Origin: Nitrospirota bacterium
Lineage (GTDB): Bacteria > Nitrospirota > UBA9217
Reading direction: 5' to 3'
Length of the DNA stretch: 64,000 bases
NCBI GenBank assembly: GCA_963818475.1
Contig: CAWFSF010000006.1
Coordinates: 672,001 to 736,000 of the forward strand
The position numbers and the translations under genes are program-made. How positions within the stretch are numbered: the stretch's first letter is position 1; each line of letters starts with the position of its first letter. Positions 41,027 to 61,907 of the stretch are shown here, piece by piece. The notes beneath the pieces are model-generated. The model ran no database searches. It had not been told where the DNA came from and saw only the letters and a program-made list of their open reading frames with translations.

Positions 41027-41110
41027 GGCCCTCGAACGAAATGGATAGTGTGATGGGTATGAATCTTCCGGGTTTTGTGTGGGTAGTTTTTCACCCTTTA
41101 TCGATTTTCT

Positions 41111-41485
41111 TGCATATCCCCTTCGCAGCCTGAATGAAATTTTTGACCCGTCTAAGGCCACATCCGCTCGATCGCGCAAACTCGGCCTTTGGCCTCAGAC
41201 AGTGCGCGCTCGCCCTTGCGGGACGCTTCTTTAGGCCAAGACGGGTGCCCAAAAATTTCATAGGGCCGCTCCGTGGACATGCGGGGTTGGTTTAAATACG
41301 TTGCACCAGAAGCTTCCCATGCGAAAATCCAGGCATGCGACCGAGTCCGAGGGTGAAGCATTTCGGACTGTCTGAGCCCGAAGGGCGAGTTTCCGAAATG
41401 TACCGAGGACGACCGAGCATGCCGTAAAGGATTTTCGCCGGGTGCCTCTTTCGGTTACCTTTCTAGGGCAAGCAAGAAAGGTAAC
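41111..41485. repeat. ~375-nt highly structured non-coding element family B, copy 1
   Basis: Colinear with 60130..60512; nested inverted repeats with compensatory changes. Confidence 0.85.
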
Positions 41486-41577
41486 AGAAAACGCGAAAAA
41501 TGGCGCAAATACTGCTTAATAAATCATATAGGCGCTTATTCCACTCACAAGAAAGCCAGAAGATCCGATGTATAAGC

Positions 41578-56779: not shown

Positions 56780-57235
56780 ATGGATAAGACAGAGAAGCAG
56801 AACCTTGCTTTGGGACTTGCCGCAGGCGTTGCCGCCGCGATCATAGGCGCCGTGCTCTGGGCCTTGATCACTGTAGCGGCCGAATACCAGATAGGCTGGA
56901 TGGCGGTCGGCGTTGGCCTTCTGGTCGGGTATGCGGTGAGGACTTTCGGAAAGGGCGTTGACAGCGTGTTCGGCATATCCGGTGCAGTCATCGCGCTGCT
57001 CGGCTGTATTGCCGGAAATTTCCTGACCGTCGTCATATTGGTTTCACGCCAGGAACACCTGGGAGTGATGGCAGTGTTCTCCCGCCTGACCCCCGGCATC
57101 GCTGTCGATCTTCTGAAAGAGACCTTTCAACCGATGGACCTGCTGTTCTACGGCATCGCCGTATATGAAGCCTACAAATTCTCTTTCGAGCCGGCGGCCG
57201 GGGAAGCGCCCGTGCCGCTCAAGCAGGCCGAGTGA
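56780..57235 (+). CDS. Hypothetical membrane protein
   Basis: Several TM segments; DLLFYGIAVYEAYK. Confidence 0.7.
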   Translation: MDKTEKQNLALGLAAGVAAAIIGAVLWALITVAAEYQIGWMAVGVGLLVGYAVRTFGKGVDSVFGISGAVIALLGCIAGNFLTVVILVSRQEHLGVMAVFSRLTPGIAVDLLKETFQPMDLLFYGIAVYEAYKFSFEPAAGEAPVPLKQAE

Positions 57236-57287
57236 GGTTCGGAGCGAATGCTGTCAGGGTAAGGAGCCTTTCTGTGTGGGGAACCCT

Positions 57288-58139
57288 ATGAGCAGGGACG
57301 AAGAATATATGCAGCCGGAAGGGGCGGGAGAGGAAGCAGTATCAGTGCCCGAAGCCGCCTCCGAAGGACCGAACGCAAAGACGAAGCGTTCCGGCATCAT
57401 GGCAGCCCTTGCCGTGGCCGGAACGCTTCTCTTGAAATTTTTGAAGCCGCTCCTGATCGGACTGAAAGCCCTCAAGGCCGGCGCCATACTCAAGACCGGC
57501 CTGACCATGGTCTTAAGCATGTGGGCTTACGCGATGGCCTGGGGCTGGGCCTACGGCGCCGCTTTCGTGCTTCTGATCTTCGTGCACGAGATGGGCCATG
57601 TGTATGCGCTCAGGCATTTCGGGATCCGCGCAAGCGTGCCCATCTTCATTCCCTTTGTGGGCGCCTTTGTCGCCATGAAGGAGATGCCGAAGAATGTGAG
57701 CATCGAAGCATGGACGGGCATTGCAGGACCCATCGTCGGCACCGGAGGGGCCATGCTCTGCTGGTCCGCGGCCCTCTATACCGGGAGCTCCTTCTGGATG
57801 GCGGTAGCCTACACGGGATTCTTCCTCAACCTCTTCAACCTTATCCCCATCAGCCCCCTGGACGGGGGAAGGACCGTGGCCGCCATATCGCCGAAGCTCT
57901 GGGTCCTCGGCTTCATCGGTATCCTTATCCTGTTCTTTCGGTCCTTTAATCCCATCTTGTTCTTCATCCTGCTTCCCGCCGGGCGCAATGTGTATGAGCT
58001 CTGGAAAAACAGGCATGAAGCTCCGCAGGAATACTACGAGGTAGACCGCAAAACAAAGGTCCAGATCTCGCTTCTTTATTTCGGCCTCCTGGCCTTTCTG
58101 GCCCTCGCGATGTCGCTGACGCATGTGAAGAGATACTAA
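57288..58139 (+). CDS. Site-2 protease family (M50) metalloprotease
   Basis: HEMGH, AGP, NLIPISPLDGG. Confidence 0.9.
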   Translation: MSRDEEYMQPEGAGEEAVSVPEAASEGPNAKTKRSGIMAALAVAGTLLLKFLKPLLIGLKALKAGAILKTGLTMVLSMWAYAMAWGWAYGAAFVLLIFVHEMGHVYALRHFGIRASVPIFIPFVGAFVAMKEMPKNVSIEAWTGIAGPIVGTGGAMLCWSAALYTGSSFWMAVAYTGFFLNLFNLIPISPLDGGRTVAAISPKLWVLGFIGILILFFRSFNPILFFILLPAGRNVYELWKNRHEAPQEYYEVDRKTKVQISLLYFGLLAFLALAMSLTHVKRY

Positions 58140-58432: not shown

Positions 58433-59527
58433 ATGGATCCCATCGATCAAAAAGTGAAGGCACTGGAAGCATTCATCGAGAAGAAGGAGCGGCTCAAGAA
58501 GACCACTCCGCTTCAGTATCTCTTCTGGGAAGCCACGCTTCGGTGCAACCTGGGATGTCTGCATTGCGGCAGTGATTGCGTGAAGAACGATGCGGCGCAG
58601 GATGCGGAGCTGGACGGAGAAGCAATAAAGCGGGAACTCCGTGCCATTGCGACGGACTATCGGCCCGAAACTGTCACCTTCGCGATCATCGGGGGAGAAC
58701 CGCTGGTACGCGAGGACATCATCGGCGTCGGGGCCTATGCGGCGGAACTCGGGTTCAACTGGGGGATCACCACGAACGGCATGCTGCTTACTGCCGACAT
58801 GGTCAAGCGGCTCAAGGACGCAAAACTCGCGACGATCTCCGTGAGCCTCGATGGGATCGAGGCAGACCATGATGCCTTGCGGAACTGCAAAGGGGCCCAC
58901 AAGGTCGTGACTGATGCCATCCGGCGTCTTCTTGCAGACCGGTTTTTCCGAACCTTCGACGTGATCTGCTGCGTGAGCAAGATCAATATCGACCATCTCG
59001 ATGCTTTTGTGGACGAAGCGGTGCGTATCGGAATTCCGGCCGTGCGCTTTACCCCGGTGTTCTCACGTGGCAGGGCCTCGAAGAACAGTTCCCTGATGCT
59101 GGATAAGTCCGATTATCTCAGGATGCTGGATTTTATCAAGCAGCAGCGGGAGAAGCAAAAGAACATACAGGTCTATCTCAGCGAAGAAGGCTATTGGGGG
59201 CCGGAATGGGAGTGCGTGATCAGGGACGAATTCCATTACTGCGCCTCGGGGATCCAGATCGGAAGCATCCTGCATGACGGCAAGGTCACAGGGTGCCCCA
59301 GCGTGTCGCGTCAATTCATCGAGGGCACGATCTTGGAGTCTGCCTTCGTCGATATCTGGAAGGGCCAATTCGGTCGGTACCGGCAGGACCGGGAAAAAAC
59401 CTTTTCACTGAAGTGCTCCGGCTGCGAGCACTGGGTCCTGTGCGAAGGCGGCGGTTTTCATCTGCTGGACCAGGAGAATACTTCGGAGAGTTTCTGCTGT
59501 CTTGAAAAAATCGGCACGAGGAGATGA
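58433..59527 (+). CDS. Radical SAM/SPASM enzyme, rSAM-lipoprotein (TIGR04133-like) type
   Basis: LFWEATLRCNLGCLHCGSDC; GGEPL; SLDG; C..G...GSIL.DG.V.GCPS; CSGCEHWVLCEGGG.H. Confidence 0.88.
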   Translation: MDPIDQKVKALEAFIEKKERLKKTTPLQYLFWEATLRCNLGCLHCGSDCVKNDAAQDAELDGEAIKRELRAIATDYRPETVTFAIIGGEPLVREDIIGVGAYAAELGFNWGITTNGMLLTADMVKRLKDAKLATISVSLDGIEADHDALRNCKGAHKVVTDAIRRLLADRFFRTFDVICCVSKINIDHLDAFVDEAVRIGIPAVRFTPVFSRGRASKNSSLMLDKSDYLRMLDFIKQQREKQKNIQVYLSEEGYWGPEWECVIRDEFHYCASGIQIGSILHDGKVTGCPSVSRQFIEGTILESAFVDIWKGQFGRYRQDREKTFSLKCSGCEHWVLCEGGGFHLLDQENTSESFCCLEKIGTRR

Positions 59528-60054
59528 AAGCAATGGGCAGAAATGAATATTCCAGGAGAGAATTTCTGAAAACATTCGCAATGCTATCCTCTGCATCGGT
59601 CATAGGGCTGAGCTTCGGATGCGCTGAGCCACAAGACGGAGCACTCTATGGTCCGGCAGCACTCTATGGTCCAGTAGCACTCTATGGCCCACCGCCCGTG
59701 AACTTAGTTCATCCCGAGGTCACCGCGATCTACTTCATCGACGATCAATCAACGAGAATTCTTCTGCAGAATAACCAGAACGTGCCCGTCCAGGTCGTCT
59801 GCCGCATCGATTTCAGCAAGTCCATGAATACAACAATGCCGGTCACGATCAGTTTTACCGATCCCGCTGAGAATGCAGTCCCGATTTCTCAAGCATGGGC
59901 GAATGACCTGACCTTGATCGTAACGCCAACATCGCAGCTTCTGTTCAATTCAGCATATGCCTTGTCCGTAGGAAATGATGCGGAGGACATTTACGGCAAC
60001 AAGATCACGTTGACTGTGGATGCAACGGTATCGTTCAGGACCGTCAGCGCATAG
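59524..60054 (+). CDS. Tat lipoprotein with 3x ALYGP and an Ig-like domain
   Basis: SRREFLK; SFGC; GALYGPAALYGPVALYGPPP; FSKSMN...TP...L...Y.L Big_5-like region. Confidence 0.8.
   Translation: MKAMGRNEYSRREFLKTFAMLSSASVIGLSFGCAEPQDGALYGPAALYGPVALYGPPPVNLVHPEVTAIYFIDDQSTRILLQNNQNVPVQVVCRIDFSKSMNTTMPVTISFTDPAENAVPISQAWANDLTLIVTPTSQLLFNSAYALSVGNDAEDIYGNKITLTVDATVSFRTVSA
59641..59694 (+). repeat. 18-bp tandem repeat x3 encoding ALYGPx
   Basis: gcactctatggtccggca gcactctatggtccagta gcactctatggcccaccg. Confidence 0.92.
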
Positions 60055-60129
60055 TATTTGGGTCTTCTGGGTTTGATGTGGGCCGTTTTTATTCTGTTTG
60101 CATCCTTAAGAGGATGAGGTATGCTTTTT

Positions 60130-60512
60130 TGCACATCCCCTTCGCGTCCTTAATGAAATTTTTGACCTGTCTAAGGCCACATCCGCTCGACCGCGCAAAC
60201 TCGGCCTGCGGCCTCAGACAGTGCGCGTTCGCCCTTTGGGACGCTGCCTTAGGCCAAGACAGGTGCCCAAAAATTTCATAGGTCCGCTCCGGGGACGTGC
60301 GGAGTTTGGGTAAAGATTAGAATCAAAGGTTCTTGGTGTTCCCATGCGAAAATTTAGCCAGGCGACCGAGTCCGAGGGTGAAGCATTTCGGACTGTCTGA
60401 GCCCGCAGGGCGAGTTTCCGAAATGTACCGAGGACGACCGAGCCTGGCGTAAAGAATTTTCGCCGGGTGCCCTTCTTTGGGTCACCTTGCTTGGGCACGC
60501 AAGAAAGGTGAC
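60130..60512. repeat. Structured non-coding element family B, copy 2
   Basis: Colinear with 41111..41485. Confidence 0.85.
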
Positions 60513-60607
60513 GAAAAAAGCTTGTTAAATAAAATACATCAGCACGTTTACAGTTTACCGACCCACACAAAAGTCAGAAGACCCTAGTATTTAAAGAGGG
60601 GGGCACG

Positions 60608-61063
60608 ATGATGCAAGATGATTGTTCGCGCAGGGATTTTCTGAAGAAGTTCGCTTTGTTATCCGCCGGGACGTTCGTGCTCGGCGCGACGACCATGGCT
60701 TGCTACGGCCCTATGGGACCGCAGCCTTCGTCTATCGCTACGGTCAGCGGCATGTACTTTCTTGATGCCTCATCGAATTTGCAGCTCCTCAGAAATAGTC
60801 AGGAAGTGCCGGTGGATACGACATTTAAAATTCACTTCTTCAATCAAATGAATACGACTGTAGACGCGACTGTCGAATTTACCGATCAGAACGCCGTTCC
60901 CTTTGGTCAGGCCTGGGACAGCGACTTCATCTTGAGCGTGGCCCCCTCATCGTATCTATTGAACGCTACGGAGTATCGGCTTATCGTGCTGGACGCTGAA
61001 AGCAAAACAGGCGAAAAAATTAACCTGGCTGGCGACGCGGAAGCGACATTCAAAACGGTGTAG
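60608..61063 (+). CDS. Tat lipoprotein with CYGP and an Ig-like domain, paralogue of 59524..60054
   Basis: SRRDFLK; TMACYGPMGP; shared YF.D..S...LL.N.Q.VPV...F...MNTT...W...F.TV. Confidence 0.8.
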   Translation: MMQDDCSRRDFLKKFALLSAGTFVLGATTMACYGPMGPQPSSIATVSGMYFLDASSNLQLLRNSQEVPVDTTFKIHFFNQMNTTVDATVEFTDQNAVPFGQAWDSDFILSVAPSSYLLNATEYRLIVLDAESKTGEKINLAGDAEATFKTV

Positions 61064-61121: not shown

Positions 61122-61907
61122 ATGGAGGATAAAAAAATTACGGAAGCCGTGACCATTTTCAGACGAATGGCTATTGCGATCATTCTGGCGGCCCTCCTGG
61201 CCGGCTGCGCAATCGGACCAGTGACCTCAAAAGACTGGGCAGGCAAGGGGTATTCGCGTTTAAAAGCCGGCGACTACGAGGGTTCGATAGACGCCTACAG
61301 CAAATCGATAGAGCTGGATCCCAGCCACGCCGTGACGTATCAAAATCGAGGGGTCAGTTATTCCCGGTTGGGCGACCAGCAGCGGGCGCTCGCTGATTTC
61401 AAAAAGGTCTTGTCGATGAACGACCAGAAGGTGCCGCTCCGTGACACCTATCGTGAAATGGGTGTTGCCTATTACCGGATGGGCAGTATTGATGACGCCG
61501 TTGCCTCCTGGAAGAAAGGCCTGAAAAAGGCGCCCTCCGATGCCGGCGTGCTCAATAACATCGCCGTCGCCTATCTGCAGCAGAAACGGTACGGAGAGGC
61601 GGCTTCAGCCGCGCAGGAGGCGTTTGCTGCAGATCCCTCGATGCCGGAAGTCCTGAATACCATGGGCCAGGTTTCAATGGAAAAAAAGGACTATGATGCA
61701 GCCGCGAAGTATTTCATGCAGTCGATCAAACGGAATCCGAAAGATCCGTCCCAATACTGGAATGCCGCCCTGGCCTTCGAAAAGATGAAGCAATACAAGA
61801 AGGCCTTAAAATACGCGACAAAGTACTCGGAAGTGGTAACGGACGCCGCCTCCCGGGAGAGGGCATCTGCCTATATAGAAGGCCTGCAGAAGATGACGGA
61901 CAGATGA
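61122..61907 (+). CDS. TPR lipoprotein
   Basis: LLAGC lipobox; multiple TPR repeats. Confidence 0.8.
   Translation: MEDKKITEAVTIFRRMAIAIILAALLAGCAIGPVTSKDWAGKGYSRLKAGDYEGSIDAYSKSIELDPSHAVTYQNRGVSYSRLGDQQRALADFKKVLSMNDQKVPLRDTYREMGVAYYRMGSIDDAVASWKKGLKKAPSDAGVLNNIAVAYLQQKRYGEAASAAQEAFAADPSMPEVLNTMGQVSMEKKDYDAAAKYFMQSIKRNPKDPSQYWNAALAFEKMKQYKKALKYATKYSEVVTDAASRERASAYIEGLQKMTDR

Follow-up and report, generated by a model that had tools for sequence, protein, structure and literature searches.

What is the target of a radical S-adenosylmethionine (SAM) enzyme whose gene is followed directly by two genes for exported proteins, and what is done to that target? This question is raised by a locus at positions 58433 to 61063 of a 64,000-nucleotide stretch of Nitrospirota DNA (contig CAWFSF010000006.1, positions 672,001 to 736,000; this whole stretch is called the window), which codes for a radical SAM/SPASM enzyme and for two paralogous proteins, termed substrates A and B, that combine a twin-arginine signal with one or more Tyr-Gly-Pro motifs. 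Comparison of related loci strongly supports the reading that these neighbours are the substrates of the enzyme, and the enzyme very probably alters the Tyr-Gly-Pro motif before export. The features of the locus are as follows.

58433-59527, plus strand: radical SAM/SPASM maturase of 364 residues (assigned from Pfam, NCBIfam, alignment and tree)
59533-60054, plus strand: substrate A, 173 residues; a twin-arginine signal and Cys30 are followed by a disordered tether that bears ALYGP three times and by a Big_5 immunoglobulin (Ig)-like domain (open frame from 59524)
59551-59571, plus strand: codons of the SRREFLK motif, which fits the twin-arginine consensus exactly (from the sequence; the helix is docked on the enzyme in the complex model)
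59640-59691, plus strand: 18-bp tandem repeat that yields three ALYGP copies at residues 37-53, presumed to be where modification takes place; the third copy runs on as YGPPP (repeat search)
60608-61063, plus strand: substrate B, 151 residues, a paralogue of substrate A with SRRDFLK, a single site ACYGP and the same Ig-like domain

The enzyme and its two neighbours

An earlier note on this DNA, made from the letters alone, had named a radical SAM/SPASM gene here, and this call is borne out, as the 364-residue open reading frame (ORF) at 58433-59527 on the plus strand contains both the radical SAM core (Pfam Radical_SAM, 67.9 bits) and the SPASM domain (23.5 bits). The CX3CX2C cluster motif is formed by C38, C42 and C45, the C-terminal part holds seven conserved cysteines, and in an alignment of 23 sequences C38, C42, C45, C270, C288, C328, C331, C337 and C355 are invariant. 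Pfam reveals no RRE (RiPP recognition element; RiPP, a peptide that is ribosomally made and post-translationally modified) in the enzyme, which has too little length for one ahead of the CX3CX2C motif at residues 38-45. The note's remark that no RRE or PqqD partner is visible also stands, with none at the locus in Pfam and no other conserved neighbour in 87 related loci. The genome (4.66 Mb) has a single enzyme of this type. The closest solved structures are GDGT/MAS synthase (7tol, E = 2.2e-10) and PqqE (6c8v, E = 4e-10), both of which are, by sequence, too remote from the enzyme to reveal its chemistry.

The gene for substrate A had been described as overlapping that of the enzyme through an ATGA. 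This is correct for the open frame, which runs from 59524, but not for the gene, whose called start is ATG 59533. An AGGAG lies 9 nt 5' of this ATG, and the protein collection contains the 173-residue protein that begins there, not the 176-residue form. With this start the two genes are 5 nt apart and thus still tightly coupled. The described run of three ALYGP motifs from an 18-bp tandem repeat, ahead of an Ig-like domain, is present as stated. Specifically, the repeat at 59640-59691 has a period of 18 bp, 2.9 copies, 91% matches and a score of 83, and the Big_5 domain covers residues 83-173 (Pfam, E = 7.7e-9). In the AlphaFold2 model of substrate A (mean predicted local distance difference test score, pLDDT, of 81), residues 8-21 form a helix, 22-46 are disordered and 62-171 fold into a beta-sandwich with pLDDT >90. 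A Foldseek search with substrate A returned only generic Ig-like or CopC-like sandwiches (best E = 4.2e-5) and no functional lead.

Substrate B is likewise the paralogous twin-arginine protein with CYGP that the note had seen, encoded at 60608-61063 on the plus strand and 41% identical to substrate A (E = 2e-35); the exact 151-residue protein is present in the protein collection. Its site is Cys32-Tyr-Gly-Pro (nt 60701-60712), with Tyr-Gly-Pro right after the Cys. The genes next to the enzyme thus carry three X-Tyr-Gly sites in A and one in B. The motif is rare, as YGP[PAS][PV] occurs 4 times in the 3,989,976 residues of six-frame ORFs from the whole genome, one of these being substrate A, and the combination of a twin-arginine signal, a Cys and xYGP is found genome-wide only in substrates A and B. 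A promoter and terminator scan gave counts at the level of shuffled sequence (2 versus 1.9 and 4 versus 2.9), and the 20 sequencing runs listed as sharing words with this DNA, all in small proportion, included no RNA run.

The pairing is conserved across phyla and the partner scaffold varies

Relatives of the enzyme number 393 at E up to 0.001, and the best 120 of these 393 are 55-87% identical. Where named, those listed carry the labels Deltaproteobacteria, Nitrospirota, Chloroflexi, Calditrichaeota, Burkholderiales, Alphaproteobacteria and Rhodospirillales metagenome-assembled genomes, with Magnetospirillum sp. XM-1 and Paramagnetospirillum magneticum among them as named hosts. We examined 15 loci in which the enzyme is at least 55% identical, two of which give no information, as they stop within 113 nt of the enzyme. 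In all 13 informative loci a protein with a twin-arginine signal and xYGP adjoins the enzyme. A survey of the enzyme's own phylum located it in 6 of 301 genomes, all in its own family; five of these six loci have the full partner, and the sixth stops at a contig edge with the start of the partner visible. The Tyr-Gly-containing partners that the note had expected beside homologues are therefore there, and the pairing spans at least six named phyla or classes.

Partners in the clade of the window enzyme (clade A of the tree described below) carry one to six xYGP(P/A)P sites each. Among homologues of substrate A, 25 of 28 have one to six sites, one is truncated and two are without Tyr-Gly, and 23 of 24 partners that resemble Pal have a single VYGPPP-type site. 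Across 84 clade-A sites from 47 distinct partner N-termini, Tyr and Gly are found in 84 of 84 because the search required them; the position after Gly is Pro in 79 and the one two further on is Pro in 66, while the residue preceding Tyr is variable (Leu in 32, Glu in 20, Val in 17, Ala in 8). The C-terminal part of the partner differs from group to group: the window and its nearest relatives have an Ig-like domain there, the alphaproteobacterial loci a Pal/OmpA-like one (121 and 136 bits on TIGR02802), and others a proline-rich part with up to four sites. It is the motif that is constant across partners and not the scaffold.

The Pal/OmpA-like partners form a family whose twin-arginine signal (MTDSRRDFLLRFAA...) hardly varies and which has one VYGPPP-type site (L006:5070-5579, L011:4073-4570, L012:4062-4568; proteins P0153-P0176). 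In the loci examined this MTDSRRDFLLRFAA family adjoins the clade-A enzyme, and it is found in cultured magnetospirilla, namely P. magneticum, Magnetospirillum sp. XM-1 and ME-1, and M. moscoviense. Partners without Tyr-Gly also occur naturally. P0138 and P0139 are of the Ig type and P0167 is of the Pal type, with VVSGPPP in place of the VVYGPPP of its relatives, and all three retain the twin-arginine signal and the domain. These proteins could serve as natural negative controls.

The enzyme belongs to a Tat-linked sister clade of the TIGR04133 family

The top NCBIfam model for the enzyme is TIGR04133 (290.2 bits, E = 1.9e-86), at a score below the curated cut-off of 425 bits, and its clade-mate at locus L006 scores similarly (288.3 bits). 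TIGR04133 and TIGR04134 are the NCBIfam pair of a 'radical SAM/SPASM protein' and a 'radical SAM-associated putative lipoprotein', both entered as 'hypothetical equivalog'. Weak matches of the enzyme include WgkB (84 bits), quinohemoprotein maturase (72 bits), DynA (71 bits) and the anaerobic sulfatase maturase anSME (64 bits). The runners-up are AhbD at 122 bits and NirJ2 at 111 bits, and these could be taken to mean that the gene adjacency has no function and that the enzyme is a cofactor or heme radical SAM protein of the AhbD/NirJ type lying beside exported proteins. We hold this to be very improbable. Both scores are far under the 500-bit cut-offs of these models, no heme-pathway gene lies beside the enzyme, the pairing recurs in at least six named phyla or classes with no other neighbour conserved, and the complex model presented below gives 0.87 for the pair versus 0.00 for the best control.

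The note had linked the locus to the TIGR04133/TIGR04134 pairs and their YGxP-type motifs, and this link is real, with support from the best hidden Markov model, the tree and the xYGxP neighbours. Metagenome loci whose enzymes are 34-41% identical to the window enzyme passed TIGR04133 in 8 of 8 cases tested (461.7-611.5 bits), and five of seven tested neighbours of TIGR04133 enzymes passed the TIGR04134 cut-off of 39.8 bits (47.8-139 bits), while two fell short of it, at 33 and 21 bits. At 53 of 72 TIGR04133-type loci the enzyme has beside it, on the same strand, a lipoprotein-like protein in which Tyr-Gly comes after a Cys; a closer look at 12 of the remaining 19 showed a YGPP or YGMP neighbour without a lipobox at eight. 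Among 83 sites of the TIGR04133 type, which follow the pattern x-Y-G-(T/V/P/S)-P, 56 have Pro at +3. The nearest ESM Atlas clusters of the window enzyme are also of the TIGR04133 type (score 0.99). In the tree, a quick IQ-TREE search of 47 rows with six outgroups, three of them on long branches, clade A (17 rows including the window enzyme) is monophyletic with an SH-aLRT (Shimodaira-Hasegawa-like approximate likelihood ratio test) value of 100 and a stem of length 1.0, and clades A and B together (41 rows) lie on one side of a branch from six other SPASM enzymes (SH-aLRT 96).

There are several differences between the two groups. Common to both are the enzyme architecture and a partner with an N-terminal signal, usually a lipobox Cys, an x-Tyr-Gly-x-Pro tether and a small beta-rich domain. 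However, partners in the window clade carry twin-arginine signals whereas TIGR04134 lipoproteins have Sec-type lipoprotein signals; the site is YGP(P/A)P in the former and YG(T/V/S/P)P in the latter; and the scaffolds are Big_5, Pal/OmpA or proline-rich, unlike those of TIGR04134 proteins. Neither substrate A nor substrate B matches TIGR04134 at E up to 10. The hosts differ as well, with clade A labelled Nitrospirota, Deltaproteobacteria, Chloroflexota, Calditrichota, Coriobacteriia, Burkholderiales and Rhodospirillales, and TIGR04133/TIGR04134 mainly Bacteroidota. The separate clade, the TIGR04133 score under the cut-off and partners outside TIGR04134 together indicate a distinct sister clade of the catalogued family that is linked to twin-arginine translocation (Tat). 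By these sequence comparisons the clade, with its varied scaffolds, is a new variant of a known enzyme-lipoprotein system, and the note's suggestion of an undescribed combination of Tat route, expanded sites and scaffold holds in that the clade falls outside both models.

In the literature searched, TIGR04133 is not mentioned by name, the mention of TIGR04134 is evidently a slip for a type-IX secretion domain, and nothing relevant links splicease, tyramine or ketoamide to lipoproteins or to Bacteroid names. Non-lipoprotein neighbours with a YGPP motif were seen beside TIGR04133-type enzymes at L081:2682-3150, L039:2758-3015 and L035:4188-4730; one of them combines a membrane helix with a zinc-ribbon-like N-terminus, another is without a signal and the third has a plain signal peptide.

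The signal peptides and a plausible Tat route

The motifs SRREFLK of substrate A and SRRDFLK of substrate B both fit S-R-R-x-F-L-K exactly, and the genome encodes TatC (187.7 bits versus a cut-off of 132.7). The Tat route proposed in the note is thus plausible for both substrates. Its description of both proteins as lipoproteins fares less evenly: in each a Cys closes the signal, and the genome encodes LspA (138.1 bits versus 73.95), but the lipoboxes SFGC (A) and TMAC (B) are atypical, agreeing with [LVI][ASTVI][GAS]C only at -1 and +1, and some relatives have no Cys. This signal-end Cys is at least 90% conserved in 21 homologues and is missing in the partners at L013-L015 and in P0176. Since some partners are without any Cys, this residue is presumably not involved in the chemistry, and for those partners a thioether can be ruled out. 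The note had also placed the products on the cell surface; we find no support for this, as the data fit a periplasmic and a surface location alike.

When partner segments are compared separately, the signal peptide is conserved above the folded domain. Mean pairwise identity among Ig-type partners is 59% in the signal peptide, 44% in the folded domain, 24% in the tether and 61% at the site; among Pal-type partners the same measures are 86, 48, 26 and 75%, values that are biased by a set fished with residues 1-70. Such a distribution agrees with the signal peptide serving a second purpose.

A complex model places the third site of substrate A in the barrel

The modelled complex comprised the enzyme, the first 75 residues of substrate A, three 4Fe-4S clusters and SAM. 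The ipSAE interface score was 0.87 (runs 0.88, 0.83 and 0.87) and that of the best of three controls 0.00, at least 66% of contacts were common to the runs, and the partner pLDDT was at least 54. In the best run the signal helix of substrate A (residues 7-30) contacts the N-terminal helix of the enzyme (3-17) and residues 256-262 and 332-336, and residues 46-58, which hold the third site (...LYGPPP...), contact the barrel at 28-31, 79-86, 109-113, 133-136, 173-176 and 250-252. The model supports binding of substrate A by the enzyme. In the calibration, 58 of 80 solved complexes attained the mark, as did 2 of 110 mismatched pairs. Custom alignments and riding small molecules make this calibration rough, and solved radical SAM-peptide complexes may have aided the model through memory; both points count against leaning on it. 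The docked signal helix mirrors the binary spliceases, where a leader helix takes the place of the RRE-like protein of cyanobacterial systems (PMC11414181, Richter et al.).

These results also bear on whether the enzyme could have its target elsewhere, for instance somewhere in the folded domain, within the signal peptide or at the lipobox Cys, with YGP-Pro serving as a structural linker or recognition element. The modification site is, after all, placed by comparison, and a Cys stands directly before Tyr in substrate B and in many TIGR04134 proteins. We nevertheless consider such a target improbable, given that the folded domain varies over partners (Ig-like, Pal-like or none), that the Cys is missing in L013-L015 and P0176, that the distance from Cys to site is variable and the number of sites ranges from 1 to 6, and that the model has YGPPP, not the Cys, in the barrel.

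Tyramine splicing and aromatic crosslinking as candidate chemistries

Spliceases are radical SAM/SPASM enzymes that act at XYG sites with variable X, of which one precursor may have several, and binary systems, which lack an RRE, bind a leader helix in its place, according to PMC11414181 and PMC11626197. In the same sources and PMC10533398 the reaction is also described to work on whole proteins, and the natural splice tags of PlpA are given as ...LYGLP... (PMC10533398), which have Pro at +3 in common with the window sites. An invariant Gly right after Tyr is presented as a hallmark of splice sites in PMC11414181, PMC11626197 and PMC9811515. The locus resembles PlpX/PcpX (with PlpY) and the binary RhaX, RcsX and RasX in having a radical SAM/SPASM enzyme and X-Tyr-Gly targets with variable X. 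By analogy, splicing fits the invariant Tyr-Gly, the free preceding residue, the multiple sites, the lack of an RRE and the Pro at +3. PMC10849128 reports a screen by Scott et al. of 3418 radical SAM/SPASM proteins for neighbours rich in Tyr-Gly, with 27 confirmed pairs, and PMC10533398 cites 939 predicted splicease systems; TIGR04133-type enzymes may already be among the systems that Scott et al. (Chem 2022, 8:2659) tested or predicted.

There are also differences from known spliceases. The leader in the window would be a Tat signal, as opposed to the Nif11, NHLP or other leaders of spliceotide precursors, and the substrates are exported (lipo)proteins of 150-175 residues whereas splicease systems have peptides released by a protease. 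A further difference is that Pro follows Gly in the window sites.

Several observations weigh against this splicing reading and the export route that goes with it. On TIGR04103, the PlpX family, the enzyme scores 105.1 bits versus a cut-off of 725, which is under its scores for AhbD and NirJ2, and another radical SAM gene in the genome outscores it on this model (118.9 bits). Among the families that the note had named for comparison, TIGR04133 is indeed the best match, and TIGR03913 gives 91 bits versus a cut-off of 591.75. Pro directly after Tyr-Gly is absent from the published splice sites examined, the substrates are folded exported proteins with no gene for a peptide-pathway protease or exporter, and no tested function was found for any TIGR04133 member in the literature searched. 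Finally, both signals remain below the cut-off of 16.7 bits on the Tat signal model TIGR01409 (12.3 bits for A and 13.6 bits for B). The splicease chemistry proposed in the note thus fits the features of the sites and is not backed by any specific affinity of the enzyme for the PlpX family.

Matches to TIGR04103 above the cut-off were found in 0 of 21 genomes of relatives and 0 of 14 control genomes. The top TIGR04103 score among relatives, 205 bits and so far under 725, belongs to a radical SAM/SPASM protein of a same-genus genome (L088:1378-2517), which served in the tree only as an outgroup; no Tyr-Gly peptide gene is visible within 1.4 kb either side of it.

The same module, sites and export logic could serve another chemistry, either a C-C or C-O crosslink that ties the ring or the beta-carbon of Tyr to the residue two positions on, giving a three-residue cyclophane as in triceptides, or an epimerisation at or next to Tyr. 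Such a change would stiffen the tether or give protease resistance and would remove no atoms but hydrogen. Aromatic-crosslinking radical SAM/SPASM enzymes (PqqE and those of triceptides, darobactin and dynobactin) are at least as common as spliceases, which counts in favour of this alternative, and the similarity of the enzyme to SPASM families is generic, with no pull to the PlpX model. The residue two after Tyr always has a beta-carbon, since Gly is never found there in the 84 clade-A and 83 TIGR04133-type sites; Pro, Thr, Val, Ser and Ile account for most cases. The strong conservation of Pro at +3 or +4 hints at a fixed turn. On the other hand, the invariant Gly straight after Tyr is the hallmark of a splice site and is, to our knowledge, not needed to form a cyclophane, the residue before Tyr is free as at splice sites, and crosslinks of the thioether kind are excluded where the mature partner has no Cys (L014 and L015). 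We regard crosslinking or epimerisation as a serious contender, though one we would still bet against.

With tyramine splicing as its chemistry, the module would work as follows. The cytoplasmic radical SAM/SPASM enzyme would bind both pre-proteins while they still bear their twin-arginine signal peptides, and the signal-peptide helix would be the docking leader, held in the model on the N-terminal helix and SPASM region of the enzyme. The xYGP sites of the disordered tether would enter the radical SAM barrel singly, one after another, to be modified there, our guess being that tyramine is excised at X-Tyr-Gly as by the PlpX and RhaX spliceases. The modified protein would then be exported by Tat and lipidated where a lipobox Cys exists, and its lipid-anchored neck would become an electrophilic element that is protease-reactive or protease-resistant. 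Built on the observed gene pairing, motif conservation, TatC and LspA and on the modelled docking, this module with its presumed splicing chemistry comes close to an even chance in our estimate without quite reaching it.

Modification of a protein in the cytoplasm ahead of its export has precedents. The anaerobic sulfatase maturase and QhpD, which acts on the QhpC subunit, are radical SAM/SPASM enzymes that modify their targets in the cytoplasm before these are sent to the periplasm, as would be the case in the window. They differ from the window enzyme in their target motifs, Cys/Ser-x-Pro-x-Arg and Cys to Asp/Glu thioethers, and belong to other enzyme families. Tat proofreading chaperones of the TorD, DmsD and NapD class are cytoplasmic proteins that bind twin-arginine signals until maturation ends. 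These are dedicated to cofactor insertion, whereas here the enzyme itself is modelled as the holder of the signal, and there is no sequence relation between them. A docking function of a Tat signal on a radical SAM maturase is not known to us. A bolder proposal, which we think unlikely, is that the Tat signal doubles as the maturase leader, with the enzyme acting as both modifier and export gate in the manner of a Tat proofreading chaperone and installing 1-6 ketoamide warheads in the necks of periplasmic or surface (lipo)proteins.

Other features of the locus

Just upstream of the enzyme, at 57165-58139 on the plus strand, lies a gene for a membrane peptidase of the M50 family (site-2 protease type; Pfam 56 bits), and downstream, at 61122-61907 on the plus strand, one for a tetratricopeptide repeat (TPR) protein with a lipoprotein-like N-terminus. 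The top NCBIfam match of the latter is the magnetosome protein MamA at 92.6 bits versus a cut-off of 200, which by sequence is generic TPR similarity only. These two and five further window neighbours were considered as accessory genes and dropped, as none of the seven is matched in the 87 related loci (tblastn, E up to 1e-4).

The two substrate genes are separated at 60055-60589 by a non-coding dispersed repeat of about 535 bp with 31-nt imperfect terminal inverted repeats (77% complementary), which has no match in Rfam. A second copy lies at about 41106-41491 of the window, and blastn finds 21 further matches in the genome (80-97% identity, 28-553 bp, five contigs). The repeat looks like a miniature transposable element. 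In the relatives L001 and L094 the substrate genes are only about 45 bp apart.

Significance

Radical SAM modification is well studied on small secreted peptides and almost unexplored on structural proteins of the cell envelope. The module at this locus is minimal, with one enzyme and one or two substrates, and is highly conserved and yet patchy, being present in 6 of 301 genomes of its own phylum. It is joined to unrelated scaffolds that include a Pal-like peptidoglycan-binding lipoprotein, and it offers a clean, testable case of a modification that has to be completed in the cytoplasm ahead of Tat export. Cultured hosts that have both the enzyme and a Pal-like partner are Paramagnetospirillum magneticum and Magnetospirillum sp. 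XM-1.

Should the chemistry be tyramine splicing, native cell-envelope proteins would contain beta-amino-acid ketoamides, and protein engineers would gain a splice tag of about six residues that is tolerated in tandem copies. If the bolder proposal above also held, backbone-spliced, electrophilic envelope proteins would be widespread and so far unrecognised, including the extra Pal paralogues of magnetospirilla and the TIGR04134 lipoproteins of gut and oral Bacteroidota, and such ketoamide proteins could, for instance, be tethered traps for serine or cysteine proteases.

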